DNA of 32,000 nucleotides, taken from Nonlabens ponticola. GTDB taxonomy: Bacteria; Bacteroidota; Bacteroidia; Flavobacteriales; Flavobacteriaceae. Location of the stretch: positions 2,250,001 to 2,282,000 of the forward strand of contig NZ_CP034549.1 of the NCBI RefSeq assembly GCF_003966335.1, read 5' to 3'. Positions 1,963 through 27,983 of this stretch are shown here, piece by piece (within the stretch, counting starts at the first letter, position 1; each line of letters opens with the position of its first letter). Position numbers and translations under genes: made by a program. A model generated the notes under the pieces. The model did not search any database. It was not told the origin of the DNA and saw only the letters and a program-made list of their open reading frames with translations.

Positions 1963-4900
1963 CTACTGCTTTTCTGGTTGTGAAGAATCGTCATTATTTT
2001 CTTCTTTCAAGGCATCCTTTTTTCTTTGATCCTTCTCGCGCTGCTCTTCTTCTTCTCTTTTAGCCTGTGCGGCTTCTTCTTGAACTGTCTTCTTGAATAG
2101 ATTAGAGAATTTGTTGAACTCTCTCGTAAAAATGACTGATATACCACTAATGACTAGTTGACCGTCGATGATGTTATCAAATTCATTGCGACGGAAACCT
2201 CTCAACTTCCACTTACCTTGTGGCGTTAACAGGTATTGAATATTCACATTACCTAAAACGGGCGCCCTATCGTTATCGCTAGAATTACCTTCTACACCTA
2301 CATCAGTACCTACACTTACAATCAATCTATCATCCAGAAGTTTCTTGCTGGCGCTTACTTCAAGGTCTGTACGTTGCTGGCTACCACCACCAGAATAATC
2401 TGTATAACTGTCCAAACCAAAGTTGAGTTCTACACCAGTATTGCCCAATAACTTACCGCCAAATTGATTTAATTGATCACTCAAAGCCTGATTGATGTTG
2501 TCACGCGCTATAGAAGCCGTACCACCACCAGCACCATCTGATCCACGAGTAGGGAAAAACTTATTGAGCACCAATAGAGAAAATACCTGCTTATTAAGTT
2601 CCTGCTCTTGCGAATTGAGTTGTTGCACCGTACCATAAACCTCGCCGCCGGCATAGCCCTGTGCATCTTCAGGCATGTCAAGTTTAAAGCTAATTTCAGG
2701 GGTCATGAGTTGACCATCGACATCTAGATAAACGAGAAAATCAAGTTCTTGCCTATAGATGGTATTGGTACCTAGATCTGCGCCACTGGTTCTTGCTGCC
2801 ATTAGCGGGCTGGCACTTGTCTCTATATCATAAACTGCGCGTACATCCATATTTGCGTCAAATGGATCGCCAGACCAGGAAACCGTACTACCCTTTTGTA
2901 AACTAAAACGGCGGTTCACAATCTCATAAAGACTTAGCTCATAGCCACCTTCTTCAACCGTGTACAATCCTGCCAGTGTTAAGCGACCATTGGGATACAT
3001 GTGAAATTGAAGATCTGCCTTACCAGACACTTGAAGATTGTCACCAGTATTGGGATCAACAATAATATTGAGCTTTGCGCCTTCGGTAACTTGGATATTT
3101 GCTTCAATGTCAAACCCTGTGACAACCGCACTTTCATCTTCAGTTTGGGTGAGTATGGCATCGGGATTTTCCTTATTTACAAACTGTACTATACCATCGC
3201 GCTGAACTAGATTAACCTCTGCAGCAGGAATGACATAGGTAAAGTCAGTCTCGTCGTCAATTTTAATTCTACCATCAACTATTGGAATGGCCAGGTCACC
3301 CTTAATAGTGGCGCTTGCGTCAAATGTTGCCTTACCATAATATAGATCATTGTCCTCACTACTAGAATCAAGAGCTGTAAATTGGTTTGCCTCTACTGAA
3401 AGATTAAATGTTGGGTTGATCAAATTTTCTGTGCCTATGAAACCGTCCACATTAATGTCATGATCTTCCTCGTCCTTGATTGTAAAATTGTTGAGCGTCA
3501 CACCATCATTATCTAGATTGATAGACTCGTTGTCTATATGATACGGCGCGTTGAGCATGCTTACTGTAAAAGCAGTCTCGTTAAAATTCAAATCACCTTG
3601 ATAAATGGGTTCTACAGTAGTACCTGTCAATGAAATGTTACCAGACAAGTAGCCACTACCATCTTCTAGAAATTCCTGCGAAAGACCAGCGATGGTTTCC
3701 ATATTGATCCTGCGCATTTGCAGTTCCATATCAAGTTGTGCGGCATTTTCATCTGCCACGTATCCACCTATCAACTCTACATCTACATTATCGCCTTGTA
3801 CCAGCAAATCAAGATCATAGGTTCCATTACCATTTGACGATGCGTCAAGATCTAATTGACCTAATGGTGTTTCAAGCGCTGTCAAATCTGTAATAGTGAG
3901 ATCTGCTACTATACCAATAGCGCCGAATAGGTCTTCAAAAATCACCTCGCCATTCATGGTTCCCGTAGCGATCTTCTCATCTGGATTGAGGTAGCTGAGA
4001 ATTGACTGTAATTTAAAATTTTCCAGCAGCAATCCTAGGTGATCTACTTCTTCCTGCGGTAGGTCTGTTCGCAATTCAATGGATTGCGCATTATTAGAAA
4101 GCCTAAAATTGCGAGCCTTGAGCTTACTCTCGCCATAGGCTAGCTCGTTATCTTCGGCAATTGTCCAGTTTTTCTTGTTTAGGATGAAATCGTCCAGCGA
4201 TAAATTAAATATCAAGTTATCAATTCCTTGTATGTCACGCTTTCGCGAAAGCTTACTCGCCACGTGCATTAATCGCTCCTCACCATCATAACTGGTAAAA
4301 TCAAGATCTAGAACATTTTGTGAAACTTTACCGTTGAGAGTTGTGCGCTGTACATCTAGAGGATCAAATTTCATCCCTTTGAATGCGATGTCAAAGCCTA
4401 GACTCTGCTCGTCTGATTGAGATTTAATAATCAGACTATCAATCTCGCTGCCTGCATATTTTACATAGGGTACGACGATATCACTGGAAAGTTTGCGTGC
4501 CTGCTCGTCAAAGTTTACCGCAAGAGTTATGGTGTCCAATGACTGCAATTGCGGTAGGATCACGTCACGCAATATGGGTGCTGGCGTGATACTACCCTTA
4601 ATTTTCATTTTGACTGGTTGAGCAGTATCGTTAGGTATCTCGTCTCTTAAATAGCGATCCACATGCCTACCTAAAGCGGCTATCAATGAAGATGGATCTG
4701 TATTTGAACGCAGCTCTAGATCCAGCATTCTATTGGCGACGTCCATAGATGTACTATCAGTACGCACGTATGCATCAATATCGACATCACCCAATAAATA
4801 AGACTGGTTGTCAAACACAGCGATACCTTCTTCAATATTTGAGCTTACCGTGTAGTTAGTGGCATCGCCCTCAAAAAAGGCGTAAATTTCTCCAGCGGCT

Positions 4901-7107
4901 TTTACATTTTGGTTGGTAATCCCAAAGGCATTGAGATCGATACCTTCAATGATCAATTCAAGATTAGCCTGACTGGCGATACTGTCCAGCGCGACGATAG
5001 CCTCAAGATTTGCGTTGATGTTGTCATCCTTATAAGAAGAGGTCAATTCGCCTTCACCGTTTTCAATCTCACCTTTTAGCGGCAAGTTTTTAATCTCGTA
5101 ATCTTTGTAAGTAAAACTCGTGACAGTAGCATCAAGCGTTGCGTCCAAAGTATTTATGGTCGTTCCTGATCCTTCTGTATCTAGTTCTAGATTTAAAATT
5201 CCTAGCTGCTCGTTTTGCAAAATGTTTCCTAGATTGAGCTCTATAACTTGCATATCTGCAGCAAAAGCAATGGTTTTTGTATTCTTGTAATTTCCTTTTA
5301 ATTCTACGTTACCTTCGGTAGTGGCTAGTGTTGCCACAGCGTCCATGTTTTGTAACGTTCCTTGAACGTCAGCAACAAGGCTTACATTTTCTGGATACTT
5401 CACACCCGATTCTTGCTCGTCCATGAACGTATTCAGGTCCGCGCGATTGGTTTTGATCTGCGCTCTAGGAAAGTTGACAAACAGATTATCAGGATCCATG
5501 GCGTTTTGCACATTACCAGATGCCGATACAGTTGTATTGTTGCCCCAAGTCAAATTGAAACTAGGTATCTGCATGTCCCGCGTGGTTCCGCGTGCTTGAA
5601 GGTTTCCACGGACATCACGTTGGGCAAGTTTGGCGAGATATTGATTTTCTCTCAACGCTGGCTGGAACCTAAAAATATCTGCAAGATCAAAAACGTATCT
5701 ATCAAAGTTGACCTGAACTTTTAATTGGTCAGGTTGATTGACTAGCGCATCTAAATCTTTATAAGTTACACGAGCATCACCTTGTAGGATGTTGTTATTA
5801 ATGTGAGCGTCGAGACCTGCAATTGAAACATTTGTTCTGGTGAGCTCGACATTTGCCGCAAATTGCTTGACGTTAATACCAGATGCTTCCTGCATTTGTA
5901 ATTCTTCCAATTCTAATTGTGCGCTGTCGTCACCCAATTTGATAATCGGCGAGATTAGATTGAATCCTTTTACATCAATCGCATTAGGATTGAAAGTTCC
6001 TTGAGTGGGTTGCTGATTGTTAACATTATACTCAAGGTTGTTGTTTACCAGGTTCAAATCCTGTAGATCGATTCTTATATCTGGCCATTCAAAACCCTGT
6101 GCATCTGGCTTGTCGCCATCATCTTGAGGATCTGTATCATTATCTACTAACGAATCCTGCATGACGATTTTGACATTGGAATCCAGCATATCGAAGTAAG
6201 ACAAGGCATAATCATTCTTGCCTACATCTGCTCTGGTGATTTCGGTCTCTAAGACTTTGAAAAATGAATCAATATTGATTTGATCTGGTACCGACTCATA
6301 TCCCATGAGCACATTGTCCAGTCGTATTTTACCTACCGTGATTTGAGGTTGCGGCGAGTTGTTGGCATCATCTACTAGGGCCTCGCCTATGGTAGTATCG
6401 GTGTTAGGACTGTAATCGGTGGTAGATTGGGTGATTTTGGTTACTGTATCCTTATCGTAAGCGATGATAGCGTCTGCGAGAACAATCTCATCAATGTCAA
6501 TGATCATTTCCTGCAGATCCAGTTTATCCATGGAAAAGTCCAGTGAACCAAATTTGACCAATCCATCAATATCTTGAACCTCATCTTGTAGCGTGATATC
6601 AAAGTCTGTAAAACTCAAATCGCCGATATCCAGCGTTAATGGTTCTGGCGTTGCCGTGGTATCCACAGTCACAAAAGTATCCATCAAAAACTGATAGTTG
6701 AATCCACTTGCGGTGTCCTGTCTCTTGATGCGTGCGACAAGTCCATTCCATTTGGCACTATTGATGGCTATGCCACCACCTTGAATGATGGGTAAAATAG
6801 GAATATCTGCCTCTAAAGATCTTGAATAAACTAAAGTATCGCCTCTTAGATCTTCCAGGTACAATCCATCCAACTGGATATTACCATCGAATGTGATGAA
6901 GAGATGCTCAATGTCAAGATTAGTTCCTGTTTCTTTCTCCACGTACTTGACGGCCTCGCCTACAATGATATTTTGTCCCCAAGGACTGCGTATGAATAGT
7001 AATAATAGAATGAGAAAAATCAGAATACCCAACATCACGCGACCTATGCGTCGCAGCCACCTATACTTCTTAGGCTGGGCAGTTTTCTCTTGTGTCTGTT
7101 CTTCCAA
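1963..7107 (-). CDS. tamB: Translocation and assembly module protein TamB-like (giant periplasm-spanning protein)
   Basis: 1714-aa ORF with a basic stretch plus a single N-terminal TM (KKYRWLRRIGRVMLGILIFLILLLLF). The body is long and beta-rich, with a DUF490-like C-terminus (GKWKLRGFRRNEFDNIIDGQLVISGISVIFTREF). It is directly followed by an Omp85 gene. The start is TTG; the basic residues before the TM argue against the internal ATG. Confidence 0.8.
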   Translation of the reverse strand: MEEQTQEKTAQPKKYRWLRRIGRVMLGILIFLILLLLFIRSPWGQNIIVGEAVKYVEKETGTNLDIEHLFITFDGNIQLDGLYLEDLRGDTLVYSRSLEADIPILPIIQGGGIAINSAKWNGLVARIKRQDTASGFNYQFLMDTFVTVDTTATPEPLTLDIGDLSFTDFDITLQDEVQDIDGLVKFGSLDFSMDKLDLQEMIIDIDEIVLADAIIAYDKDTVTKITQSTTDYSPNTDTTIGEALVDDANNSPQPQITVGKIRLDNVLMGYESVPDQINIDSFFKVLETEITRADVGKNDYALSYFDMLDSNVKIVMQDSLVDNDTDPQDDGDKPDAQGFEWPDIRIDLQDLNLVNNNLEYNVNNQQPTQGTFNPNAIDVKGFNLISPIIKLGDDSAQLELEELQMQEASGINVKQFAANVELTRTNVSIAGLDAHINNNILQGDARVTYKDLDALVNQPDQLKVQVNFDRYVFDLADIFRFQPALRENQYLAKLAQRDVRGNLQARGTTRDMQIPSFNLTWGNNTTVSASGNVQNAMDPDNLFVNFPRAQIKTNRADLNTFMDEQESGVKYPENVSLVADVQGTLQNMDAVATLATTEGNVELKGNYKNTKTIAFAADMQVIELNLGNILQNEQLGILNLELDTEGSGTTINTLDATLDATVTSFTYKDYEIKNLPLKGEIENGEGELTSSYKDDNINANLEAIVALDSIASQANLELIIEGIDLNAFGITNQNVKAAGEIYAFFEGDATNYTVSSNIEEGIAVFDNQSYLLGDVDIDAYVRTDSTSMDVANRMLDLELRSNTDPSSLIAALGRHVDRYLRDEIPNDTAQPVKMKIKGSITPAPILRDVILPQLQSLDTITLAVNFDEQARKLSSDIVVPYVKYAGSEIDSLIIKSQSDEQSLGFDIAFKGMKFDPLDVQRTTLNGKVSQNVLDLDFTSYDGEERLMHVASKLSRKRDIQGIDNLIFNLSLDDFILNKKNWTIAEDNELAYGESKLKARNFRLSNNAQSIELRTDLPQEEVDHLGLLLENFKLQSILSYLNPDEKIATGTMNGEVIFEDLFGAIGIVADLTITDLTALETPLGQLDLDASSNGNGTYDLDLLVQGDNVDVELIGGYVADENAAQLDMELQMRRINMETIAGLSQEFLEDGSGYLSGNISLTGTTVEPIYQGDLNFNETAFTVSMLNAPYHIDNESINLDNDGVTLNNFTIKDEEDHDINVDGFIGTENLINPTFNLSVEANQFTALDSSSEDNDLYYGKATFDASATIKGDLAIPIVDGRIKIDDETDFTYVIPAAEVNLVQRDGIVQFVNKENPDAILTQTEDESAVVTGFDIEANIQVTEGAKLNIIVDPNTGDNLQVSGKADLQFHMYPNGRLTLAGLYTVEEGGYELSLYEIVNRRFSLQKGSTVSWSGDPFDANMDVRAVYDIETSASPLMAARTSGADLGTNTIYRQELDFLVYLDVDGQLMTPEISFKLDMPEDAQGYAGGEVYGTVQQLNSQEQELNKQVFSLLVLNKFFPTRGSDGAGGGTASIARDNINQALSDQLNQFGGKLLGNTGVELNFGLDSYTDYSGGGSQQRTDLEVSASKKLLDDRLIVSVGTDVGVEGNSSDNDRAPVLGNVNIQYLLTPQGKWKLRGFRRNEFDNIIDGQLVISGISVIFTREFNKFSNLFKKTVQEEAAQAKREEEEQREKDQRKKDALKEENNDDSSQPEKQ
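4239..4252. repeat. Dispersed palindrome GCTTTCGCGAAAGC, copy 1 (inside tamB, read as LSRKR)
   Basis: Exact 14-mer read directly from the sequence. The TamB peptide here is ...ASKLSRKRDIQ... Confidence 0.95.
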
Positions 7108-7220
7108 TTTTAGGGTTCTAGGCGGTTGTAAAGGTTTGACTTTGCAAATTGCTAATTAACTAACGTTCAGACCGCTTTGAACAGGATAAAATTGTGTTAA
7201 TAAATGAGAGAGGCTGAAAC

Positions 7221-7378: not shown

Positions 7379-10300
7379 TTACATATTACGCCTATACTGC
7401 CCACCTACTTCAAACAACGCCTCGGTGATCTGGCCTAGCGTACAGACTTTTGTAGCTTCCATCAAGTGTTCAAAGATGTTTTCTTGTTGTACTGCAGCTT
7501 GTTGTATGCTGGATAACTGTTGCTGTTGCGCTTTCGCGAAAGCGGAATGCAAACCATTTTTTGTAGCAATTTGTGCTTGCTTTTCCTCTTCTGTGGCGCG
7601 TATGACCTCAGCAGGTAAAACCGTTGGGCTACCTTTTGAACTCAAGAACGTGTTCACACCAATGATTGGGAACTCGCCTGTGTGTTTCAACATCTCGTAG
7701 TGCATAGATTCTTCCTGAATCTTGCTGCGCTGATACATGGTTTCCATCGCGCCCAGCACGCCGCCACGCTCTGTGATGCGATCAAATTCCTGCAGGACAG
7801 CATTCTCAACTAATTCTGTCAACTCTTCAATGATAAAAGCTCCTTGGATTGGGTTCTCGTTTTTGGTGAGACCCAACTCTTTGTTGATGATCAACTGGAT
7901 GGCCATCGCACGTCTTACAGATTCCTCAGTAGGTGTGGTAATGGCCTCGTCATAAGCATTGGTATGCAATGAGTTACAGTTGTCATTGATAGCGTAAAGT
8001 GCTTGCAATGTCGTCCTGATATCGTTAAAATCAATCTCTTGTGCGTGCAATGATCTACCACTGGTCTGAATATGGTATTTCAACATCTGCGCTCGCGGAT
8101 TTGCACCGTACTTGTGCTTCATGGCTTTGGCCCAAATCTTACGCGCCACACGACCTATCACAGAATATTCTGGATCGATACCATTTGAGAAGAAGAAACT
8201 CAGGTTAGGACCAAATTTATTGATGTCCATACCACGGCTCAGGTAATACTCTACATAGGTAAATCCATTAGCCAGCGTGAACGCCAGCTGCGTAATCGGA
8301 TTTGCTCCAGCCTCGGCAATGTGATAACCAGAAATCGACACACTATAGAAATTGCGTACTTTTTCTTCAATAAAATATTCCTGAACGTCACCCATGAGAC
8401 GAAGTGCAAATTCGGTCGAGAAAATACAGGTATTTTGCGCCTGATCTTCTTTTAAAATATCTGCCTGTACCGTACCGCGCACTTGAGCTAGCGTTTCTTT
8501 CTTGATGCGATCATAATTTGCCGCATCCAGAACTTGGTCTCCAGTAAGACCTAACAACATAAGGCCTAAACCATCGTTGCCTTCTGGCAGTTTGCTGGTA
8601 TCTACAGATCCGTTTTTAGAATATACTTTATCGCCATCAGCATTGAGATATGATGGACGATCTACATTATTATCGTCATAGACCTCCTTGAGCTTTGCTT
8701 CTACTCGATCGCCTAAATCATTTTCTTTGATAAAGCGCTCACAATTCTGATCTATGGCAGCATTCATAAAGAAACCTAGCAACATAGGCGCTGGCCCGTT
8801 GATGGTCATCGATACAGATGTCATGGGATGAGACAAATCAAATCCAGAATAGAGCTTTTTGGCATCATCCAGACAGCAAATGCTTACACCTGCATTACCG
8901 ATTTTACCATAAATATCTGGTCTCAAACCTGGATCATTACCATAAAGCGTGACACTATCAAAGGCTGTACTCAAACGCTTTGCGGGCATCCCTAAACTCA
9001 CATAGTGAAAACGCCTGTTGGTACGTTCTGGGCCGCCTTCTCCTGCAAACATTCTTGTAGGATCCTCGCCAGTACGTTTGAACGGATACAATCCTGCGGT
9101 ATAAGGAAACTCGCCCGGAACATTTTCCTGTAAACACCACTTGAGAATATCACCCCAAGCGCTGTATTTAGGTAAGGCTACTTTTGGTATTGGCTGGTGT
9201 GATAAGGACTCTGTATGCGTCTCAATCTTGATGACTTTATCACGCACCTTGAATTCATAAATAGGCTGCTTGTATTTATTGACCTTATCATCCCAAGTAG
9301 TGATAATTTCCCAATTGTAGGGATCTAGATCTTTGAGCGTTTTGTTGAATTGGGCAACTAATAAAGTGATGAGTTCAGAGTTATGAGTTAAGAGTAAATC
9401 CTCATTCAATCCTTTTTCAGCTAGTAACTCTGAACTTTGAACTCCAAACTCTGAACTTAAAACGGCCTGAATAGTCTTGTAAACACCATATAACTTCTGA
9501 GCAACCTCTGCTTGTACACTTGTTGTGTTATCATAAGCTCTGTTGCTTTCGGCAATCTCGCTTAGGTATCGTGTGCGCGCTGGTGGAATAACAAATATCT
9601 TCTCGCTTTGCTCCTTGATCAAATCTTGAGTTGGCGTGAGATCGACACCAGTCTTTTTGGTGACTTCCAGCATGAGCGACTCATATAAAGCGTTCATTCC
9701 CGGATCGTTAAATTGGCTTGCGATCGTTCCATAAACCGGCAAGGTTTCTGGATCTGCTTCCCAAAGATTGTGATTGCGCTGATATTGCTTCTTTACATCT
9801 CGCAACGCATCCAGTGATCCACGTTTGTCGAACTTGTTGATGGCAACCAGATCAGCAAAATCAAGCATGTCGATTTTTTCTAGCTGTGTAGCGGCACCAA
9901 ATTCTGGTGTCATTACATACAATGAGACATCGCTGTGTTCTAAAATCTCAGTATCGCTTTGCCCAATACCGCTAGTTTCAAGGATAATCAGATCATAGTC
10001 TGCAGCCTTGAGCACATCTACTGCTTCTTGAACGTGTTTGGAAAGTGCGAGATTGGATTGTCGTGTTGCCAATGATCTCATGTAAACACGATCGTTATTG
10101 ATGGCGTTCATTCTAATACGGTCTCCTAGGAGCGCGCCGCCAGTCTTACGTTTTGATGGGTCAACCGATATGATCCCGATATTTTTCTCTGGGAAATCAA
10201 TAAGAAATCTGCGTATCAATTCGTCAACTAGTGATGATTTTCCCGCACCACCAGTTCCTGTGATCCCTAATACAGGTGCTTGCTTTGGTGTTTTGTCTGC

Positions 10301-10861
10301 TTCGACAAAGTGTTTTTCAAAATCCTCATGACGATTCTCTGCCAATGATATCAATCTAGCAATTGTAGGCACGTGGTTTTGCAGTAATTCTCCATTTAAT
10401 TGCGCTTTCGCGAAAGCGGGAACTTCAACATCACACTGCTTGACCAAATCATTGATCATTCCCTGCAAGCCCATCTCACGACCATCGTCTGGACTGTAGA
10501 TGCGCGTGATGCCGTAATCCATGAGTTCTTTTATCTCCGATGGCAAGATCACGCCGCCGCCGCCGCCAAAAATCTTAATATGACCAGCGCCTTTCTCTTG
10601 CAGCAGATCATACATATATTTAAAGTACTCATTATGACCACCTTGATAAGAGGTCATCGCAATACCATTGGCATCTTCCTGAATGGCAGTATTGACAACT
10701 TCTTCTACACTCCTATCGTGACCTAGGTGAATCACCTCACAACCAGTGGATTGTATGATGCGTCGCATGATATTAATCGCTGCATCATGACCGTCAAATA
10801 GACTGGCAGCCGTAACGATTCTTACTTTGTTTTTAGGGATGTAGGGTGTTTGATCTTGCAT
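7379..10861 (-). CDS. icmF: Fused isobutyryl-CoA mutase (B12-binding domain + MeaB-like GTPase + mutase barrel)
   Basis: 1160 aa. N-terminal B12-binding domain with DxHxxG (FDGHDAAIN). Central G-protein P-loop GTGGAGKSS. Long C-terminal methylmalonyl-CoA-mutase-like domain. This three-part architecture is diagnostic for IcmF. Confidence 0.9.
7530..7543. repeat. Dispersed palindrome copy 2 (inside icmF, read as AFAKA)
   Basis: Exact 14-mer, extending to the 16-bp palindrome CGCTTTCGCGAAAGCG at 7529-7544. Peptide ...[11 protein letters not shown]... Confidence 0.95.
10404..10417. repeat. Dispersed palindrome copy 3 (inside icmF, read as AFAKA)
   Basis: Exact 14-mer, a 16-bp palindrome at 10403-10418. 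Peptide ...[11 protein letters not shown]..., in the linker between the B12 and GTPase domains. Confidence 0.95.
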
Positions 10862-10886: not shown

Positions 10887-10894
10887 CAAAATTA
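10887..10894 (-). promoter_or_regulatory. Putative Bacteroidota -7 box TAATTTTG for icmF
   Basis: The minus strand reads TAATTTTG (consensus TAnnTTTG) 25 nt upstream of the icmF ATG. A TTTG lies about 23 nt further upstream. Confidence 0.4.
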
Positions 10895-11008
10895 CGAAAA
10901 CGATAGCGTAATATTTTCAAAACACCACGGTTTTAAGGCAGTCTTACCATCTGAAAAATCCTACACGTCGCTAGGTGCTTTTTAAGATAACCGCAACATT
11001 GTGAAACC

Positions 11009-11886: not shown

Positions 11887-14433
11887 ATGAAAAGTATCAT
11901 TTCAGCAGTTTTTGCTTTCTTCTTAATTTTCTCATTTTCTACTGCTCAAGAAAATAGATTGGGTAATAATCCATTGAGCAGTTCTGAAATTTATCACCAA
12001 ATAGAGAAGCTAGGTTTTCTAGGTTCTGCGCTATTTGTTGCAGCACATCCAGATGATGAAAATACCCGATTGATCTCATGGCTGGATAATGAAAAAATGG
12101 CCCGTACCGCTTATTTGTCGCTCACTCGTGGCGATGGTGGTCAAAATCTCATAGGTTCCGAATTGCGAGAGCAGCTGGGTATGATACGCACACAGGAATT
12201 GCTCGAAGCGCGCAACATTGATGGCGGCGAGCAGTTTTTTACTCGAGCAAACGACTTTGGTTACTCAAAACATCCTGATGAGACGCTGGAAATTTGGGAC
12301 AAAGAAGCTGTTTTGTCAGATGTCGTGCGCATCATTAGAAAATTCAAACCAGATGTGATCGTTAACAGATTTGATCACAGATCGCCAGGCAGCACTCATG
12401 GACATCATACCAGCAGTGCGATGTTAAGTGTTGAGGCCTTTGATCTTGCAGGGAATAAGTCGGCCTATCCAGAGCAATTGGACAACCTTGAGACCTGGCA
12501 ACCAGAGCGATTATTTTTCAATACAAGCTGGTGGTTTTATGGTAGTCGTGACGCTTTCGCGAAAGCTGACAAAACAAACCTCATCGAGGTAGAATCAGGC
12601 AATTATTATCCATATAGTGGTCGCAGCAACGGTGAGATCGCAGCATTAAGCAGAAGTCAACACCAATCTCAAGGTTTTGGATCCAGCGGCTCACGCGGCA
12701 CCTCGACGGAATATCTAGAATTTTTAAAAGGTAGCTTTCCTGAAGACAAATCAGATTTATTCTCTGGTATCAATACTAGCTGGAGTCGTATAGATGAGTC
12801 AGGATCTGTAGAAAAAGTATGGAGAAAGTTACTCGTGAACTATGATTTTAAAAATCCGTCGGCGAGTTTGAACCAGCTTTTAAAGCTTAAAACACAGCTG
12901 GAAAAATTACCAGACAGTTACTGGAAAGAGGTAAAACTGAAAGAGGTAAGACAATTAGTTCTTGATATGACAGGTGTTTATTTGAACGCAACGGTCAATC
13001 AACCTTATGCAACACCTGGCGAGACTGTAGATGTCGATATAGAAATAACAAATCGAGCACTGCAATCACTTAATTTCAAGGTAAACGGCAATTCGGACTT
13101 GCAAATAATTAAAAACAATCAGCGCGTATTACCCAACAATAGCTCAACTACGGTTGAGGCGCAGTTGTCAATTCCAAAAAATCAAAAACCTACAAATCCG
13201 TATTATCTCGAGCAAGAAGGCTCGCTAGGAATGTACGCAGTGGCAGACGAGAGCCTGATAGGCTTACCGGAAACGGATGAGCCATTTTCTGTTTCGATGG
13301 ATTTAATTTTTGACGGGCAAAAAATCAATTACGAAGTCCCAATCATTTATCAGACTACAGACCGTGTACGCGGTGAGGTCTATGAACCATTTCACATCAA
13401 ACCAGCAGTGAGTATTTCGTTTACTCAGCCTAATTACATCGTCACCAATTTTGAAGAGCCAACAGAGGTGATTGCAACGGTCAAGGCGTTTCAAGACGTG
13501 AAGAATTTTTCGATTGTGACCTCTGCAAAAGGAGATTGGAAAATTAGTACGACAAACGCCGATCTAAGTCCCATAAAAGCTGGGATGAGTAGAGAATTTA
13601 CATTCAACGTCCTACCCAAACCTGGCACTGAAGCAGATCTTCAATTTAGATTTATAGCAAATGGTCAAGTGTTTAATCAAGAAGTGGTAACAGTCGCCTA
13701 CAATCACATTCCAGATCAACAACTATTAAAGCCTGCGGCAAGTCGCATGGTGGCTCTCGATCTTAAAAATGCTGCTAAATCGGTAGCCTACATCAACGGC
13801 GCTGGCGATGATGTAACACAGGCCATTGAAGCAATGGGTACGACGGTGGTCAAATACAATCCTAATGAACTACCAGCAGATTTATCTATGTTTGACGCAG
13901 TGGTCGTTGGCATTAGAGCATTCAATGTAGCACCAGATGCGATGACAAATATCCAACCGCAGCTCAATGCTTTTGTCAACAACGGCGGCACTTTGTTAAT
14001 GCAGTATAATACAAATCGTGGTGTGCGTAGTGATGCACTAGGGCCATTGGAGATTACGCTTTCGCGAAAGCGTGTTACCGATGAAAACGCTGCTGTCGTA
14101 TTTCTTGCACCTGAACATCCAGTATTAAACACGCCTAACCAATTGACTGCCAAAGATTTTGAAGGTTGGGTTCAAGAGCGTGGCTTGTATTTTCCTGATG
14201 CCTGGGATTCAGCATTTACACCTGTTTTAGGGATGAGCGACAAAGGCGAGCCTATTACAAAAGGCAGCTTGATCGTCGCTGAATACGGCAAAGGTCATGT
14301 GGTTTACACAGGTTTGAGTCTTTTTAGGGAATTGCCTGCCGGTGTGCCAGGTGCTTACCGATTACTGGCTAATATGCTAAGTTTGAGTTCTAACAAATCA
14401 ACCATTGAAAAAGAAACCGACCAAAAACTCTAG
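11887..14433 (+). CDS. Secreted PIG-L/LmbE-family deacetylase with a long C-terminal extension
   Basis: Signal peptide MKSIISAVFAFFLIFSFSTAQ. LmbE/PIG-L motifs AHPDDEN and LTRGDGGQN, plus HxxH-like GHHTSS. 848 aa in total. The C-terminal ~200 aa look like a ThuA/GATase1-like fold; that assignment is from memory and unverified. Confidence 0.8.
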   Translation: MKSIISAVFAFFLIFSFSTAQENRLGNNPLSSSEIYHQIEKLGFLGSALFVAAHPDDENTRLISWLDNEKMARTAYLSLTRGDGGQNLIGSELREQLGMIRTQELLEARNIDGGEQFFTRANDFGYSKHPDETLEIWDKEAVLSDVVRIIRKFKPDVIVNRFDHRSPGSTHGHHTSSAMLSVEAFDLAGNKSAYPEQLDNLETWQPERLFFNTSWWFYGSRDAFAKADKTNLIEVESGNYYPYSGRSNGEIAALSRSQHQSQGFGSSGSRGTSTEYLEFLKGSFPEDKSDLFSGINTSWSRIDESGSVEKVWRKLLVNYDFKNPSASLNQLLKLKTQLEKLPDSYWKEVKLKEVRQLVLDMTGVYLNATVNQPYATPGETVDVDIEITNRALQSLNFKVNGNSDLQIIKNNQRVLPNNSSTTVEAQLSIPKNQKPTNPYYLEQEGSLGMYAVADESLIGLPETDEPFSVSMDLIFDGQKINYEVPIIYQTTDRVRGEVYEPFHIKPAVSISFTQPNYIVTNFEEPTEVIATVKAFQDVKNFSIVTSAKGDWKISTTNADLSPIKAGMSREFTFNVLPKPGTEADLQFRFIANGQVFNQEVVTVAYNHIPDQQLLKPAASRMVALDLKNAAKSVAYINGAGDDVTQAIEAMGTTVVKYNPNELPADLSMFDAVVVGIRAFNVAPDAMTNIQPQLNAFVNNGGTLLMQYNTNRGVRSDALGPLEITLSRKRVTDENAAVVFLAPEHPVLNTPNQLTAKDFEGWVQERGLYFPDAWDSAFTPVLGMSDKGEPITKGSLIVAEYGKGHVVYTGLSLFRELPAGVPGAYRLLANMLSLSSNKSTIEKETDQKL
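12553..12566. repeat. Dispersed palindrome copy 4 (inside PIG-L gene, read as AFAKA)
   Basis: Exact 14-mer. Peptide ...GSRDAFAKADKT... Confidence 0.95.
14058..14071. repeat. Dispersed palindrome copy 5 (inside PIG-L gene, read as LSRKR)
   Basis: Exact 14-mer, extending to the 18-bp palindrome ACGCTTTCGCGAAAGCGT at 14056-14073. Peptide ...EITLSRKRVTD... Confidence 0.95.
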
Positions 14434-17314: not shown

Positions 17315-17338
17315 ATTACGCTTTCGCGAAAGCGTAAT
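17315..17338. repeat. Dispersed palindrome copy 6, the longest form: 24-bp perfect palindrome ATTACGCTTTCGCGAAAGCGTAAT (core 17320-17333)
   Basis: Read directly from the sequence. It is intergenic, about 100 bp upstream of the osmC ATG and just downstream of the DUF2911-gene terminator. Confidence 0.95.
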
Positions 17339-20156: not shown

Positions 20157-21074
20157 TTACTTGTAATAACCGGCTTCAGGAATGGCGATGTGATAGAGCT
20201 TGCGTGACCTGTTGTTCAACTTAGCCTCTCGCAACCACGGATTATGGATTTTAAGTACTTTGTAGGATATTTTTTGCGCTTTCGCGAAAGCTGCCAAATC
20301 CTCAATCTCATAATCCACGTCAACATGCGTGACTGGAACCGAGGTGTATAAATGCTCAGGCGCTACCTGAAAACCGTACTTCTCAGGTTGTTCAATGATT
20401 TCCTTCAATGCCAAAATCCTAAAGACATATCGCGACGTTTCTGAATTAAGCAATAAATCATAGTAAGCATCCTCATCCTGTCGATCTTGCAGATTTGATA
20501 TTCCTGCCTTACCCGCGTTGTATGCTGCTGCGGCAAGTGTCCAGGTACCAAATCGCGCTTTACTTTCTTTTAAATACTCACAAGCGGCTCTAGTGGCCAT
20601 TTCAATGTGGTAGCGTTCATCTACATTAGAATTGACCTCAAGTCCTAGCTCGCGTGCGGTAGCTGGCATTAATTGCCAAAAACCTCTGGCTCCAGCTGGA
20701 GATACAGCTTGTGTCAAGGCACTTTCTGCGACGGCTAGATATTTAAAATCATCGGGTATGCCATTTTCTGCTAGGATAGGCTCTAGAATTGGGAAATACT
20801 TCTCGCTGCGCTTGATTAACTTGATAGCGTTTGACTGAAAGTACACGTTTGACAGCAGCTCGTTATCAAATCGCTCCTCTATATCAGGATCAGAAAGTGG
20901 GACAGATTCTCCTGCAAAATTCAAGTTTGCTGGCATCGCGAGAGAATGAACCACATAACCGTCCTTGACATGCATGTTGCTTGACTCTTGAGAATCATTT
21001 CTAGGTCCTTGAATTGCACCTACAATAGCTATTAATCCTACCGCAATGATACCACCTATCAATACTTTCTTCAT
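20157..21074 (-). CDS. Lytic transglycosylase (SLT domain, MltD-like)
   Basis: N-terminal TM/signal segment. SLT catalytic region AVAESALTQAVSPAGARGFWQLMPATARELGL and AAYNAG. The ORF track starts at TTG 21080; ATG 21074 is equally possible. Confidence 0.85.
   Translation of the reverse strand: MKKVLIGGIIAVGLIAIVGAIQGPRNDSQESSNMHVKDGYVVHSLAMPANLNFAGESVPLSDPDIEERFDNELLSNVYFQSNAIKLIKRSEKYFPILEPILAENGIPDDFKYLAVAESALTQAVSPAGARGFWQLMPATARELGLEVNSNVDERYHIEMATRAACEYLKESKARFGTWTLAAAAYNAGKAGISNLQDRQDEDAYYDLLLNSETSRYVFRILALKEIIEQPEKYGFQVAPEHLYTSVPVTHVDVDYEIEDLAAFAKAQKISYKVLKIHNPWLREAKLNNRSRKLYHIAIPEAGYYK
20278..20291. repeat. Dispersed palindrome copy 7 (inside the lytic transglycosylase gene, read as AFAKA)
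   Basis: Exact 14-mer. Codon phase was checked by hand. Peptide ...DLAAFAKAQKIS... Confidence 0.95.
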
Positions 21075-21121
21075 CTTCAAATTTTTGTTTAAAGATAAAA
21101 TATTGCTCAGATTAACTAGTC

Positions 21122-22253: not shown

Positions 22254-22264
22254 ACACTTGTTTT

Positions 22265-22999
22265 TTAGCTTTTCATCCACAATTTTATAGCACGTTCTAG
22301 ATCTTGCGGTGTATCAATACCAATACTGGCTTGAGATGTCTTGATCATGCGTATTTTTTTACCATGTTCTAGATATCTTATACCTTCAATTTTTTCAGCT
22401 AGTTCTAGTGGTGTAGGTTGTGAATGGTAGAAGTCCATTAATGCTTTTTTCCTAAAAGCATAGATACCAATATGTTTATATACTGGCTGGATATGATGCT
22501 CATCTCGTTGAAATGGGATTGCGGCTCGTGAGAAATACATAGCGTTGCTACATTGATCTACAATCACTTTTACATTATTAGGATTCTCAACATCCGCTGG
22601 GTCTATTAATTCATGCATGAGCGATGTGAGATCAATGGATTGATCTTGATCCTTTTCAAAAATTTCAAGCAGTCGTGATAAATCCTCGCGATTTGTAAAT
22701 GGTTCATCTCCTTGTACATTGACCACAATGTCCGCATCTATATTCTGGGCAGCCTCGGCAATGCGATCTGTGCCGCACTCGTGCTCTTTTTGACTCATGA
22801 TTGCGTTACCGCCATGCTGTAGTATCACATCATGAATCTTACCGCTATCTGTCACGACAAATACCTCATCAAAAAGCTGGGTGTTTACCGTCGCTTCATA
22901 AGTGCGCACGATGACAGGCTTGCCAGCAAGATCCTGCAATAATTTTTCAGGAAAGCGAGAAGCTTGTAATCTGGCTGGAATGATGGCGATTTTGCGCAT
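22265..22999 (-). CDS. kdsB: 3-deoxy-manno-octulosonate cytidylyltransferase (CMP-KDO synthetase)
   Basis: 244 aa. N-terminus IAIIPARLQASRFPEKLL and VNVQGDEP are typical KdsB motifs. Confidence 0.9.
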   Translation of the reverse strand: MRKIAIIPARLQASRFPEKLLQDLAGKPVIVRTYEATVNTQLFDEVFVVTDSGKIHDVILQHGGNAIMSQKEHECGTDRIAEAAQNIDADIVVNVQGDEPFTNREDLSRLLEIFEKDQDQSIDLTSLMHELIDPADVENPNNVKVIVDQCSNAMYFSRAAIPFQRDEHHIQPVYKHIGIYAFRKKALMDFYHSQPTPLELAEKIEGIRYLEHGKKIRMIKTSQASIGIDTPQDLERAIKLWMKS

Positions 23000-23000
23000 G

Positions 23001-23453
23001 TTAGTAATTTAATGGGACTGTAAATTTACCACCAGCTTCTTCCACCTGAATACCTTTTGATCTCAAAAAGTCGGTAAAATCTGCTAATTGAGCATCTGTA
23101 TCAAAAGCTAATTGTCGGTATTTGATGACACTTAATTTCAAATTAACCGAACGTCCTTGAGAGCTTTTTCGGTACACTGCCTTTTCTATAGTTTCCAATT
23201 TAATTTCACGTGCCACACTATTTGTTATGAATAGTAGGAATGACAACAAAAACGCTATGACTCCAATACCTGTGATAATCACAGCCATTGCACTAGGAAC
23301 GTAATCAATTAATGGTCTTATCATATTGACGCCACTGAAGACTCCTATCATGATAAACGCCCATAATCTGTACCTAGCGTTATCTTCTATCATAACGTTC
23401 TGTGTGGATTCATCCCAGCTCCACTGTGCTGATTTTCTATCTAAAAAACTCAT
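23001..23453 (-). CDS. Hypothetical membrane protein (2 TM + soluble C-terminal domain)
   Basis: 150-aa ORF. It has a 4-nt overlap (ATGA) with the upstream DUF4126 gene and a 1-nt gap to kdsB. I recognise no domain. Confidence 0.6.
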   Translation of the reverse strand: MSFLDRKSAQWSWDESTQNVMIEDNARYRLWAFIMIGVFSGVNMIRPLIDYVPSAMAVIITGIGVIAFLLSFLLFITNSVAREIKLETIEKAVYRKSSQGRSVNLKLSVIKYRQLAFDTDAQLADFTDFLRSKGIQVEEAGGKFTVPLNY

Positions 23454-24055
23454 GATGTGGTTGTAGGTTTATTGTGATTATGCTTTCGCGAAAGCTGACT
23501 CCTCTTAAACATTTTCTTATACAATTTGCGTATCCCAAGAATGAGCAACACTACAAGAATGAATGCGATTACTGGAGCAAAAATAGATAGAAAACTAAGC
23601 ACAAGACTGAAGACGACTTCCACCACATTAATGATGGGATTTGCGATTCCTGCTGTGGCGGTCGTGCTGGCCGCTCTAGTAGCACCAGTGCTGCTGGCAA
23701 TTGTTGCTGCTGTACCACCACCTGCAATGATGGCCAGTGTCCAGCTGTAAATAGGGTCAAGATCTGTTACCACGCTTACCATTACTAATGTTCCTGCGAT
23801 AGTCGCGAGAGGTATGGTGATGCTGTCCAATAAGTTATCTACTACTGGAATGAAATAGGCTGCAATCTCTATCACAGATGCGACACTTAATAGCGTGATG
23901 GCCGTCAAGCTGCCAGCCCATTGCCAGCTCTCGTTGAGTGGTATCCAGCCTACATAACTTGCAATACTAAGCAGCAATAAAGGCACAAAAACACGGAAGC
24001 CTGCACTGGCGCTTAATCCTATTCCTAATAATACACTTGCGATGATTTCCCACAT
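23450..24055 (-). CDS. DUF4126-like integral membrane protein
   Basis: 201 aa and polytopic. The N-terminus IGLSASAGFRVFVPLL is typical of DUF4126. Confidence 0.7.
   Translation of the reverse strand: MWEIIASVLLGIGLSASAGFRVFVPLLLLSIASYVGWIPLNESWQWAGSLTAITLLSVASVIEIAAYFIPVVDNLLDSITIPLATIAGTLVMVSVVTDLDPIYSWTLAIIAGGGTAATIASSTGATRAASTTATAGIANPIINVVEVVFSLVLSFLSIFAPVIAFILVVLLILGIRKLYKKMFKRSQLSRKHNHNKPTTTS
23482..23495. repeat. Dispersed palindrome copy 8 (in the basic C-terminal tail of the DUF4126 protein, read as LSRKH)
   Basis: Exact 14-mer. Peptide ...KRSQLSRKHNHNK... Confidence 0.95.
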
Positions 24056-24057
24056 GA

Positions 24058-25482: not shown

Positions 25483-25557
25483 GAAAAGTGTGGAAAACCA
25501 GCGTATAAACTTACTTCAAAAAAAAGACGAGCCATTAGGCTGAGTGAAAAAAAATTG

Positions 25558-25565
25558 TAGATTTG
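25558..25565 (+). promoter_or_regulatory. Putative -7 box TAGATTTG
   Basis: Exact TAnnTTTG match 36 nt upstream of ATG 25601. It lies inside the GTG-extended ORF (25544), which argues for the ATG start. Confidence 0.4.
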
Positions 25566-25600
25566 TTTGCTTTGGAAATAAGCTTTTAAACCCAACACTT

Positions 25601-26344
25601 ATGCTTAATTTAATCTTGTCGGTAGTTATTGGAATCATAGTTCTCGTGCTACTTGCGATTTTTATCAATAAAATACCACGCAAATTTCATATTGTTATCA
25701 TCATCGTGCTACTCGCGTTGATAGGTTTCTTTGGCTTTAAGTTATACCAATCCATCGCAGAGCCAGTGAAGTTTGAAGCAGTAAAAGAAGAGCGTTATAA
25801 GAAAGTGGTAGAGAAGCTTACTCAAATAAGAGATGCACAAGCAGCTCACAAAACCATTAGAGGTGTTTACACAGACGATATCAATGCACTTGCTGCTTTT
25901 ATCGACACGGCACAATTTGCTATAACTACAAAACGTGATACAAGTGTTGCAGATGAAGAGAAAAACCGCGCCTTTAGAGTAAGTGGTTACTACAAGGAAA
26001 TCACAATCACAGATACTCTAGGATTTACCTCAGTTAAGGATTCTATGTTCCGTAATGTAGATGTTAGAAACCTACTCGCCTATCCTATAGAAGGCGTTGA
26101 TCAAAAAATGACCTTGAAAACGGATGTCGTTATTGATGGTGAGAATAGAATTAGCGTTTTTGAAGCAACGGCTGATAAAGCAGTAATACTATACGATCAA
26201 CCGGAGAAGTTGGTACAACAAGAACTTGAGGTAAAAGCTGTAGAAGCGATCGATGGCCCAACTATTAAAGTAGGTAGCCTAGAAGAAGTAACAACTAGTG
26301 GTAACTGGCCTAGACAATATGCAGTCCAGAGAAACAACAAATAA
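25601..26344 (+). CDS. Hypothetical membrane-anchored protein (2 N-terminal TM helices)
   Basis: The ORF has two N-terminal TM helices followed by a soluble domain. I recognise no domain. The start is set at ATG 25601. Confidence 0.6.
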   Translation: MLNLILSVVIGIIVLVLLAIFINKIPRKFHIVIIIVLLALIGFFGFKLYQSIAEPVKFEAVKEERYKKVVEKLTQIRDAQAAHKTIRGVYTDDINALAAFIDTAQFAITTKRDTSVADEEKNRAFRVSGYYKEITITDTLGFTSVKDSMFRNVDVRNLLAYPIEGVDQKMTLKTDVVIDGENRISVFEATADKAVILYDQPEKLVQQELEVKAVEAIDGPTIKVGSLEEVTTSGNWPRQYAVQRNNK

Positions 26345-27080
26345 TTTACCTTCATCATATAGATTGTCCGTCCTGATTCATCAGGATGGACTTTCTTTTT
26401 TTATCGATAATGGTAACGAGATTGTCAATACGATCACTCGAGATTTCAAGCATCAATCCAATCCTATCGAGATCCTAGAATCAATTGAGCAAGCTTATGA
26501 ACAAGAGGATAAGCTGCAACAAAAATTTGATGAAGTAAACCTGATCTATCACCACTCTATACTTTCGTTGGTTCCAGCATCTTTATACGAGGAGTCGCTG
26601 CAGGCTGATTACTTAAAATATAACACCCGTATTTTACAGACTGATGTAATAAGCATTGACGAGAACGTAGGAAATATGAATGTGAATGTGGTCTATATCG
26701 CCTACTCTAACATTAATAATTTCTTCTTTGATAAATATGGTGATCACCAATACTATCATTACAGCTCTAGATTATTACCAATTATAAAAGAGGTAGATGG
26801 CCTCCATATAGAAATGATGGATTCTCATTTTTATCTTACGGCCATACAGCAGGGCAAACTCATTGCTCACAACAGCTTTCCCTATGACGAGATAGAAGAT
26901 GTGCTCTATTACACGCTATATGCTATGAGTCAACATCAACTAGATCCTGAAACGATTGACACCTATTTGCGTGGCGGCAATGTAGATCCCAAATTATTTG
27001 ATTTGCTCTACATGTATATACGCAAGCTGCACCGTGACAAAGAATATACTATACACTTGAACAAATTGATATGCGCATAA
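26319..27080 (+). CDS. DUF3822-like protein
   Basis: YRLSVLIHQDGLSFFI near the N-terminus is typical of DUF3822. ATG 26319 is preferred to GTG 26298. The 3' end overlaps the rsmD start by 10 nt. Confidence 0.65.
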   Translation: MQSRETTNNLPSSYRLSVLIHQDGLSFFIDNGNEIVNTITRDFKHQSNPIEILESIEQAYEQEDKLQQKFDEVNLIYHHSILSLVPASLYEESLQADYLKYNTRILQTDVISIDENVGNMNVNVVYIAYSNINNFFFDKYGDHQYYHYSSRLLPIIKEVDGLHIEMMDSHFYLTAIQQGKLIAHNSFPYDEIEDVLYYTLYAMSQHQLDPETIDTYLRGGNVDPKLFDLLYMYIRKLHRDKEYTIHLNKLICA

Positions 27081-27622
27081 TTTCTGGAATTCATAAGGGA
27101 CGACGCATTCAAGCACCCAAAAAGCTACCAGTGCGGCCTACTACTGATATGGCCAAGGAAGCTTTGTTCAACATTTTAAGACACCAGATTCATATTCACG
27201 ACATAAGCGTGCTGGAATTGTTTGCCGGTAGCGGTAACATGTCCTATGAATTTGCGAGTCGCGGCGCTGGTCAAGTGACTGCAGTAGATTCACACATGCC
27301 ATGTGTTGCCTTCATTCAAAAAACCGCTACTGAACTTGATCTACCCATTGATACCCTAAAGGCAGATGCATTCAAATTTCTAGAGAAGCATACAGGTAGT
27401 TACGACATCATTTTTGCCGATCCACCCTATGCGATTGAACAAGATGAATTTCTTAAAATACCAGAATTTGTCGCGAGTAACAAATTGCTTAAGGACGATG
27501 GTCTGTTGATAATTGAACATTCTAAGCATACAGACCTTAGCAATCACGAGACCTTTGATAATGCACGTCGATATGGCGGTACGGTCTTTAGTTTTTTCAA
27601 ACCAGCATCTCAAGAAGAATAA
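27071..27622 (+). CDS. rsmD: 16S rRNA (guanine966-N2)-methyltransferase
   Basis: 183 aa. MRIISGxxKGRRI N-terminus, RPTTDxxKEALFNIL, SAM-binding motif ELFAGSG, and the catalytic DPPY. Confidence 0.85.
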   Translation: MRIISGIHKGRRIQAPKKLPVRPTTDMAKEALFNILRHQIHIHDISVLELFAGSGNMSYEFASRGAGQVTAVDSHMPCVAFIQKTATELDLPIDTLKADAFKFLEKHTGSYDIIFADPPYAIEQDEFLKIPEFVASNKLLKDDGLLIIEHSKHTDLSNHETFDNARRYGGTVFSFFKPASQEE

Positions 27623-27629
27623 TAAAAAA

Positions 27630-27983
27630 GCAGGCCTGTAAGCTGGATTCTGTCGTTGCACATGCGCGCAACGCCTTATCATTTATCTAGGATCGTGATT
27701 ACTCACGACCTCTATCTGCCTACCCTTCAAAATCGCGCGGATCGCACTCAAGCTTTGATATACTGGGCATTGCACCACATAGAGTTTACCTGATTTCACT
27801 ACAGCATTACCTGTACATTCTTTCTGTTGCACTTGTCCTATTACGCTTTCGCGAAAGCTAACTCATCAAAGAGCGCCCTGCAAAAGCACAACGACGGTCG
27901 TTAACCGCTATGCCATCCTATGGTGTCCAGACTTTCCTCCTTGCGCAACACTAGGTCAAACGCACGGCGATAAGGCGGCCTGC
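27630..27983 (-). ncRNA. rnpB: RNase P RNA, bacterial type A-like
   Basis: The minus strand carries the conserved blocks in the canonical order: GGAGGAAAGUCUGGAC (P4 5' strand), AGUGCAACAGAAAG, GGUAAACUC, CCUAGAUAAAUGA and ACGACAGAAUCCAGCUUAC (P4 3' strand). P1 is GCAGGCC/GGCCUGC (27983-27977 with 27636-27630). P2 is GCCUUAUC/GAUAAGGC. A compensatory change in P4 relative to E. coli (CCGG to CUGG/CCAG) supports the call. The ends are good to about +/-5 nt, and a T-run follows the 3' end. Confidence 0.9.
27845..27858. repeat. Dispersed palindrome copy 9 (inside the mature rnpB RNA)
   Basis: Exact 14-mer. With its flanks it forms the hairpin UUAGCUUUCGCGAAAGCGUAA (RNA sense, 27861-27841, one bulged G). 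Confidence 0.95.

Follow-up and report, generated by a model that had tools for sequence, protein, structure and literature searches.

Nine copies of one palindrome in a 32-kb window of Nonlabens ponticola

The window analyzed in this study, a 32-kb stretch of the Nonlabens ponticola genome (contig NZ_CP034549.1, positions 2,250,001 to 2,282,000), carries genes for a TamB-family protein, the fused isobutyryl-CoA mutase IcmF, a PIG-L/LmbE-family protein, OsmC, a DUF2911 protein, an SLT-domain transglycosylase, a DUF4126 protein and the RNA component of RNase P. Scattered through this DNA is the 14-mer palindrome GCTTTCGCGAAAGC, hereafter the motif. An exact search recovered all nine copies reported in an initial annotation of the window, and inspection of their flanks confirmed the lengths that it had given for the individual palindromes (Table 1). 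Also as annotated, seven of the nine copies lie inside coding sequences (CDSs): two each in the IcmF and PIG-L genes, and one each in the TamB, SLT and DUF4126 genes. In translation, four of these read A-F-A-K-A and three read L-S-R-K. The remaining two copies are found in the RNase P RNA gene and in intergenic DNA.

The chance expectation for a 14-mer in this window, previously put at about 1e-4 copies, was recalculated with Markov models of order 0 to 5 trained on the window with the motif copies masked. These models predict 3.5e-6 to 1.4e-4 copies, in agreement with the earlier estimate, and the motif is over-represented about 1e5-fold. The core is as invariant as first described: beyond the nine copies, the window contains no site with one to three mismatches, where dinucleotide shuffles lead one to expect 1.2. 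Neither the half-site nor the center of the motif behaves in this way by itself. The half-site GCGAAAGC alone is not enriched, since nine of its 10 occurrences in the window fall within the motif. The NruI-type hexamer TCGCGA at the motif center occurs 17 times, and the eight occurrences outside the motif, compared with about five expected from base composition, indicate that the hexamer is not avoided.

A planted sequence or an assembly artefact was ruled out. IcmF, whose gene holds two of the copies, matches the public N. ponticola protein at NCBI with 100% identity, so the motif is natural, and it is present in dozens of independent genomes.

Table 1. Positions, gene context and form of the motif copies and of one possible relative in the window
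Feature	Position	Gene (position, strand)	Translation	Palindrome (bp)	Remarks
Copy in TamB-family CDS	4239-4252	1963-7107, minus	L-S-R-K	14	
Copy near C-terminus of IcmF	7530-7543	7379-10861, minus	A-F-A-K-A	16	
Copy in IcmF inter-domain linker	10404-10417	7379-10861, minus	A-F-A-K-A	16	
Possible decayed copy	10891-10912				ATTACGAAAACGATAGCGTAAT; arms ATTACG...CGTAAT, diverged core 2 nt shorter
First copy in PIG-L/LmbE-family CDS	12553-12566	11887-14433, plus	A-F-A-K-A	14	
Second copy in PIG-L/LmbE-family CDS	14058-14071	11887-14433, plus	L-S-R-K	18	
Intergenic copy	17315-17338 (core 17320-17333)	between OsmC and DUF2911 genes		24	perfect palindrome ATTACGCTTTCGCGAAAGCGTAAT
Copy in SLT-domain transglycosylase CDS	20278-20291	20157-21080, minus	A-F-A-K-A	14	
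Copy near C-terminus of DUF4126 CDS	23482-23495	23450-24055, minus	L-S-R-K	14	
Copy in RNase P RNA gene	27845-27858	27623-27986, minus		14	in 47-nt expansion at P9 hairpin loop

The motif is abundant in Nonlabens and Dokdonia

To place the motif in a wider context, we searched the genomes of 185,579 species, one per species, for exact matches to the 14-mer and retrieved matching tiles of up to 8 kb. Among the 120 matching tiles listed, about 85 came from Nonlabens, Dokdonia or unnamed metagenome-assembled genomes (MAGs) of Flavobacteriaceae, and nearly all listed tiles with two or three copies belonged to this group. The other tiles listed carried single matches, mostly in high-GC genomes and in a few other low-GC taxa. 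Such single matches outside the Flavobacteriaceae do not exceed what chance would produce in a collection of 185,579 genomes. Two records labelled 'uncultured Aquimarina sp.' share an orthologous copy (L071:7055 and L110:157), and the second record (L110) contains two within 8 kb. Unless these records are mislabelled, the range of the motif is wider than Nonlabens and Dokdonia.

The resulting sample consisted of about 0.8 Mb of tiles, most of them chosen for containing a copy, and six loci of 20-32 kb. A less biased measure of density was obtained from loci picked via a protein rather than via the motif. Per 23.5 kb, the loci of four Nonlabens species contained 7, 7, 5 and 5 copies; per 20.7 kb, those of two Dokdonia contained 6 and 3. 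Taken together, seven unlinked loci representing six species have roughly one copy every 3-4 kb, which extrapolates to about 700-900 copies per genome. The initial annotation had raised the possibility of an enrichment confined to this window; the similar densities in other Nonlabens and Dokdonia loci show that it is not. A tblastx comparison of the window with random tiles returned a single syntenic Dokdonia fragment. Among about 245 loci examined for other repeated 12-mer palindromes, or 'dialects' of the motif, we found none apart from one trivial case.

Matches in a viral sequence collection were mostly single and at chance level. The viral contigs with multiple copies were low in GC and prophage-like, with portal, major capsid and protease genes, and showed the motif spacing of the host. 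Two of them, L176 (IMGVR_UViG_2617271332_000001) and L212, have three copies each, 3-6.5 kb apart, and one of these prophage copies lies within a head-maturation protease gene. The DNA of temperate phages thus bears the motif as well.

Copies are conserved as DNA and arise by substitution

We compared N. ponticola with three other Nonlabens species in which third-codon identity to N. ponticola is as low as 0.37-0.55. In 10 of 11 orthologous comparisons with a conserved peptide, all 14 nucleotides of the motif were identical. As a control, only 6.5% of 4,759 windows with an identical pentapeptide matched over 14 nucleotides. As judged from these alignments, the motif is shown to be held letter-perfect at the DNA level while nearby synonymous sites saturate. 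Losses do occur despite this constraint, as exemplified by complete divergence of a site in N. arenilitoris. In 773 kb of Flavobacteriaceae DNA, we counted about 180 perfect copies, 15 copies with one mismatch and 15 with two, corresponding to a ratio of perfect to one-mismatch copies of about 12 to 1. The mismatches are spread along the motif, and none of the 15 two-mismatch variants is a compensatory pair.

Orthologue comparisons also revealed how copies come into being. At the C-terminal IcmF site, Nonlabens proteins read ...HSAFAKAQQ... where other genera have ...HKAFGEES..., with no change in length. At the second PIG-L site, the L-S-R-D-R found family-wide in Flavobacteriaceae has become L-S-R-K-R throughout Nonlabens, and this replacement of D by K is the sole amino acid change needed to spell CTT TCG CGA AAG CG. 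At the first PIG-L site, some members of Nonlabens have AFAKA and the others AFEKA or AFDKA. The reverse situation is seen in an alpha/beta hydrolase, in which Dokdonia has K-L-S-R-K-L with the motif and N. ponticola has R-L-S-R-A-T without it. New copies have also been gained at other places, for example at a different TamB position in N. antarcticus. Within the limits of such alignments, copies are shown to be written by point substitution into near-motif sites, altering the protein where needed.

Copies occur in genes and spacers and avoid one another

Within CDSs, which hold 68% of the copies in either orientation, all three reading frames are used: among 107 coding copies, 61 read AFAKA, 23 FRES and 23 LSRK. 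Non-coding DNA contains 24% of the copies compared with 7% of random positions, a 3.3-fold enrichment. The motif had been described as indifferent to coding status. This description is accurate insofar as copies occur in genes and spacers and in every frame, but it overlooks the preference for non-coding DNA.

The spacing of copies departs from uniform placement. Among 77 gaps between neighbors, the smallest was 856 bp and the median 2.87 kb, with a mode near 3 kb. None of the 77 gaps was shorter than 800 bp, whereas uniform placement predicts 17. For the four long loci, only 0.15% of simulations gave gaps with a coefficient of variation as low as the observed one (P=0.0015).

The motif lies within a symmetric footprint of biased composition

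Beyond the 14-mer, the consensus extends outward. Over 155-173 sites, position -1 is C and position +1 is G in about 80%, and positions -4 and -3 are T in 58-68%, so the loose TTRC...GYAA extension noted in the window is a general property of the motif. In non-coding DNA, the consensus becomes the 22-bp palindrome tTAC-GCTTTCGCGAAAGC-GTAa.

A second, broader feature emerged from the base composition of the flanks at 173 sites, drawn from loci L001-L123 and the window, with all nine window copies included. Over about 25-30 nt on the 5′ side, C drops from 0.18 to 0.02-0.09 and G+T rises; on the 3′ side, G drops to 0.05-0.10 and A+C rises, the effect fading by about 30 nt. GC skew is accordingly +0.5 on the 5′ side and -0.5 on the 3′ side, and the whole footprint spans about 65 bp, symmetric about the palindrome. 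The skew is present at all three codon positions of coding copies and also in non-coding copies, with C relatively tolerated at positions -2, -8, -14 and -20. The two sides vary independently (r=-0.02), both being skewed at 57% of sites and neither at 3.5%; a one-sided skew caused by the direction of replication was rejected on these grounds. Two orthologous pairs suggest that the skew evolves after a copy has been gained.

The flanks show no sign of pairing with each other. Complementarity between mirror positions (-j/+j) equaled the expectation from composition, and swapping flanks between partners left the mean folding energy unchanged at -10.5 kcal/mol. With no excess arm pairing and no compensatory changes among the two-mismatch variants, an extended hairpin or cruciform was rejected. 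The predicted DNA hairpin of the 14-mer itself is weak (-2.1 kcal/mol). An intrinsic terminator was likewise rejected, as it had been in the initial annotation: most copies are in CDSs, a terminator scan at the intergenic copy called none, and the flanks are T-rich upstream and, on both strands, A-enriched and T-depleted downstream, which is the reverse of a terminator.

Individual copies differ in distribution and fate

The copies in the window have had different histories within the genus. The TamB copy is missing from the N. antarcticus orthologue, whose own TamB copy is the one mentioned above. The C-terminal IcmF copy is identical at the DNA level in N. arenilitoris, N. tegetincola and N. 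antarcticus, and has decayed in N. xiamenensis through a 1-nt insertion. In N. antarcticus (L244:10430-10500), an in-frame insertion of 27 nt splits the IcmF linker copy precisely at its dyad: CCC CCA TTT is followed by the inserted CCT GTA AAG GAA TCA AAA GAC AAG GAC and then by GCG AAA GCG, and the right half-site is still intact. The same insertion, PFPVKES(T/K)DKD, is found in at least seven Nonlabens IcmF proteins (P0008, P0014, P0022, P0024, P0025, P0041 and P0055).

The first PIG-L copy is also present in N. xiamenensis and N. antarcticus, and N. arenilitoris reads AFENA at this site. The second PIG-L copy is DNA-identical in two species and was lost in N. antarcticus through the synonymous change CGA>CGG, with LSRKR kept. 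Copies directly downstream of the DUF2911 gene, like the intergenic copy in the window, are also found in two other loci, L121 (position 2347) and L244 (position 2511). Two Dokdonia orthologues lack the SLT copy where it would align and have KFAERF and AFSERF there.

The copy in the RNase P RNA gene lies in an expansion of 47 nt that, in the Rfam alignment, replaces the 6-nt P9 loop of the model. In the predicted fold, which is not significant, the palindrome pairs with an upstream GUGCUUUUGCAGGGC stretch and not with itself. In the same Rfam alignment, P12 is poorly aligned or mostly missing.

The one degenerate relative that had been pointed out, ATTACGAAAACGATAGCGTAAT, stands up in part. 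Its outer arms are motif-like and typical of the non-coding consensus, but its core is different and shorter, and it is not recovered at three or fewer mismatches. It is located 487 bp from the IcmF linker copy, closer than any two intact copies are to each other. Judging from its arms and position, ATTACGAAAACGATAGCGTAAT may be a decayed, redundant copy.

A lineage-specific signal of the uptake-sequence kind is the best reading

By analogy with the uptake signal sequences (USS) of Pasteurellaceae, the DNA uptake sequences (DUS) of Neisseriaceae and the highly iterated palindrome HIP1 of cyanobacteria, the best reading is that GCTTTCGCGAAAGC represents the core of a lineage-specific genomic signal in Nonlabens and Dokdonia. 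That the motif is under selection as a signal and is recognized by a symmetric protein is highly probable. Given the lack of arm covariation, the absence of compensatory variants and the weakness of the predicted hairpin, the signal would be read as duplex DNA, presumably by a protein or complex of two-fold symmetry whose footprint spans about 65 bp. The mutual exclusion of copies suggests that each would serve a neighborhood of a few kilobases, in which a second copy would add little. Furthermore, the core contains 28 bits of information, compared with roughly 12 bits needed to specify about 800 sites in 2.9 Mb. Such an excess makes it probable either that the signal discriminates between own and other DNA or that a conversion mechanism copies the sequence exactly.

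We more tentatively propose that the motif serves as a tag favoring the uptake and/or recombination of conspecific DNA, a role that is plausible although somewhat short of probable. The tag would accumulate through uptake or recombination bias plus selection. The initial annotation had recognized the pattern of uptake signals in the window. This view is consistent with the restriction of the motif to a lineage, its positional conservation at the DNA level, its intergenic enrichment, its use of all frames and its even spacing, which are hallmarks of USS, DUS and HIP1; the indifference to coding status on which the comparison had partly been based has to be qualified by the preference for non-coding DNA. 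The Flavobacteriales include naturally competent Riemerella species, and Riemerella columbina prefers its own DNA; a search of k-mers of up to 10 nt found no convincing signal in that organism (PMC7965970).

Several observations weigh against a role in uptake. In both genes that are comparable between Nonlabens and Dokdonia, the motif sites are genus-specific, and natural competence of either genus is not in evidence. Known uptake signals are 9-12 nt long and asymmetric, which contrasts with a perfect palindrome of 14-22 bp, and perfect copies outnumber mismatched ones more sharply here than is known for USS and DUS. Finally, a repair or conversion drive, or a protein spreading along the chromosome, would also be compatible with the even spacing and the excess information.

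Alternative readings of the motif

The last of these possibilities leads to an alternative that we consider unlikely but deserving of attention, namely that a chromosome organizer loads onto or binds to the motif. Candidates are a ParB/Noc-like CTP clamp, a nucleoid-associated protein, a condensin-related factor or a topoisomerase for which the motif is a strong site. A homodimer bound to the palindrome would act over a few kilobases, and an even spread of sites would be selected. Such a protein fits the perfect palindrome with its symmetric footprint and no hairpin covariation, the even spacing with exclusion below about 850 bp, the conservation of positions within the genus, and the TTTC/GAAA half-sites, which also occur in parS and in Noc-binding sites (NBS). 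It fits less well with a core carrying at least 28 bits where about 12 would probably suffice, or with a copy roughly every 3-4 kb across seven unlinked loci, as opposed to a few parS sites or about 70 NBS. In addition, the geometry differs, with 1 nt between the TTTC block and the dyad compared with 2 nt in parS and NBS, and prophages carry the motif at host density, which a purely chromosomal role does not predict.

A nicking/repair or methylation system of the Dcm/Vsr type is another reading to which we assign a low but appreciable probability. The palindrome, with its TCGCGA/CGCG core, would be nicked or cut at the dyad, and short-patch resynthesis would restore near-copies in a conversion drive and imprint strand-asymmetric flanks of 25-30 nt. 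The nearly all-or-none state of copies, with perfect ones outnumbering one-mismatch ones about 12 to 1, is what such a drive should produce. The length of the skew equals that of a DNA polymerase I repair patch, its polarity would fit a 5′-flank template fixing C>T and A>G deamination, and in one lineage an insertion interrupts the motif precisely at its dyad. HIP1 is reported to be tied to orphan methyltransferases (PMC4390886). Three features of the sequence are nevertheless at odds with a drive of this kind. C is depleted at codon positions 1 and 2 as strongly as at position 3, and the excess of T is beyond what transitions can give, both of which point to selection or site choice and not to mutation alone; the hexamer TCGCGA is not depleted outside the motif. 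Moreover, a pure drive offers no obvious account of even spacing. The more specific proposal, in which a dedicated symmetric machine of the nuclease or nickase type would act at the dyad about every 3 kb, its repair patches restoring near-copies and imprinting the switch from C-poor to G-poor flanks, is rather doubtful. If true, it would amount to an undescribed genome-maintenance or self-recognition system of marine Flavobacteriia, and the motif would be more than another dialect of an uptake signal.

The motif might also mark self DNA in the manner of Chi, stopping a helicase-nuclease and promoting RecA loading, with the palindrome acting in both orientations. Chi is likewise an over-represented, lineage-specific oligomer found once per few kilobases, and it lies in DNA that is rich in G+T on its 5′ side; the density of the motif is near that of Chi in Escherichia coli, and the G+T-rich 5′ flank of the motif on each strand matches both the side on which RecA would be loaded and the composition that RecA prefers. 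Even spacing would limit degradation, and host-resident phages carry the motif. We nonetheless regard a Chi-like role as very unlikely. Known Chi sequences are short (5-8 nt), asymmetric and co-oriented with replication, unlike a palindrome of 14-22 bp, for which no orientation is possible. The half-site alone is not enriched, and the flank skew fades after about 30 nt.

A function as an RNA or single-strand hairpin, be it in termination, RNA stability or priming, is highly improbable. The motif is self-complementary, its stem reaches 9 bp in non-coding DNA, and GCGAAAGC, which is known as an unusually stable DNA mini-hairpin, is present on both strands. These properties do not, however, come with covariation or excess pairing outside the core, and the two-mismatch variants lack compensatory pairs. 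Flanks opposite to those of a terminator, the negative terminator scan, the location of most copies in CDSs in either orientation, the lack of enrichment of the half-site and the weak predicted hairpin all argue against such a structure.

That the motif is a very small mobile element inserting into genes, whether a miniature inverted-repeat transposable element (MITE), a repetitive extragenic palindrome (REP) with its associated transposase (RAYT) or a Rickettsia palindromic element (RPE), has next to no probability: although there are many identical copies, some of them in-frame in genes as RPEs can be, and the RNase P RNA copy lies in an expansion, copies and their flanks align gap-free with orthologues and outgroups, the copies are flanked by conserved coding sequence native to the gene, the peptides AFEKA and LSRDR represent intermediates a single substitution away, neither target duplications nor pairing between arms came to light, and copies avoid each other. 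Known repeats of this class, including bacterial interspersed mosaic elements (BIMEs), are insertions of 20-150 bp with imperfect and variable copies, in contrast to the exact core and indel-free surroundings of the motif. We thus concur with the initial annotation in setting aside REP/BIME elements, given the 68% of copies in CDSs, and MITEs and RPEs, given the origin by substitution; the many decayed copies with target-site duplications that it associated with a decaying element were not observed, mismatched copies being few.

Comparison with known iterated sequences

Among known systems, the signal that we favor for Nonlabens and Dokdonia has much in common with HIP1 (GCGATCGC). Both are perfect palindromes that are hyper-abundant in coding and non-coding DNA across a lineage, with orthologous positions conserved beyond codon usage, non-random spacing and a CG-rich core of the restriction-site type. 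The sequences are unrelated and the phyla differ, so GCTTTCGCGAAAGC of Bacteroidota is an analogue and not a member of the HIP1 family. HIP1 is 8 bp long and occurs up to more than once per kb, whereas the flavobacterial motif is 14-22 bp long, occurs about once per 3-4 kb and has very few one-mismatch relatives. The period reported for HIP1 is tens of kilobases, in contrast to the short-range exclusion of more than 850 bp and the mode of about 3 kb seen here, and a strand-asymmetric flank composition was not found described in the passages on HIP1 that were consulted. HIP1 is selected, quasi-periodic and methylated, was long without a known function, and has now been linked to transformation (PMC5861425; bioRxiv 10.1101/2024.09.10.611283; 10.64898/2026.06.24.733823).

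The motif also resembles USS and DUS in mode of evolution: USS in coding regions likewise originate through point mutation where the protein tolerates it and occur in all reading frames (PMC2817400). The differences from USS and DUS are nevertheless substantial. These signals are asymmetric sequences of 9-12 nt that occur about once per kb. DUS are often arranged as close inverted pairs that serve as terminators, whereas flavobacterial copies are never close and have anti-terminator flanks. Competence, uptake bias and a receptor have been demonstrated for USS and DUS. Shared features include hundreds to thousands of copies common to related genera, intergenic enrichment, positions conserved between species, and a core with weaker flanks.

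The resemblance to parS and the Noc site that had been remarked on in the initial annotation proved to be superficial. All three are perfect palindromes of 14-16 bp with TTTC...GAAA half-sites, and a dimer recognizes parS and NBS as it would the motif. The half-sites of parS and NBS read xGTTTCAC/GTGAAACx or xATTTCCC/GGGAAATx, and in parS (TGTTTCAC and GTGAAACA on either side of the dyad) as in NBS, TTTC is 2 nt from the dyad, whereas it is 1 nt away in the flavobacterial motif, a shift of 1 nt per half-site. Copy number differs even more. A genome has a handful of parS copies near the origin of replication and about 70 NBS. The motif has 3-9 copies in every locus of 20-32 kb examined, unlike the few of parS or the tens of NBS, and exceeds parS by two to three orders of magnitude; clustering near the origin is not in evidence in these loci.

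Significance of the motif

A text search of about 8 million full-text papers returned no occurrence of the 14-mer, of the 16-mer or of their sub-strings, apart from one unrelated primer-like string. Searches for palindromes in Dokdonia or Nonlabens returned only mentions of CRISPR, and searches combining HIP terms with Flavobacteria returned nothing relevant. For Bacteroidota as a whole, our searches found no description of an uptake signal, a highly iterated palindrome or a comparable genome-wide signal, which agrees with the statement in the initial annotation that none was known for Flavobacteriia. The motif is of the same kind as HIP1, USS and DUS, but six properties set it apart from them: its sequence, its phylum, its length, its perfect symmetry, the exclusion at short range and the switch in flank composition.

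Both host genera, Nonlabens and Dokdonia, are common among marine Flavobacteriia, and the latter serves as a model of proteorhodopsin physiology. Beyond its host range, the motif illustrates that a signal at the DNA level can override the protein, as seen in the radical change from D to K fixed in the family-conserved LSRDR, and its symmetric switch in flank composition is a new and unexplained feature of such signals. The motif could be used as bait for finding its binding protein, and it offers a route to transformability through its addition to constructs, as has been done for HIP1. A tag of 14-22 bp present in about 800 copies predicts that DNA exchange among these bacteria in the ocean would be biased toward their own species.

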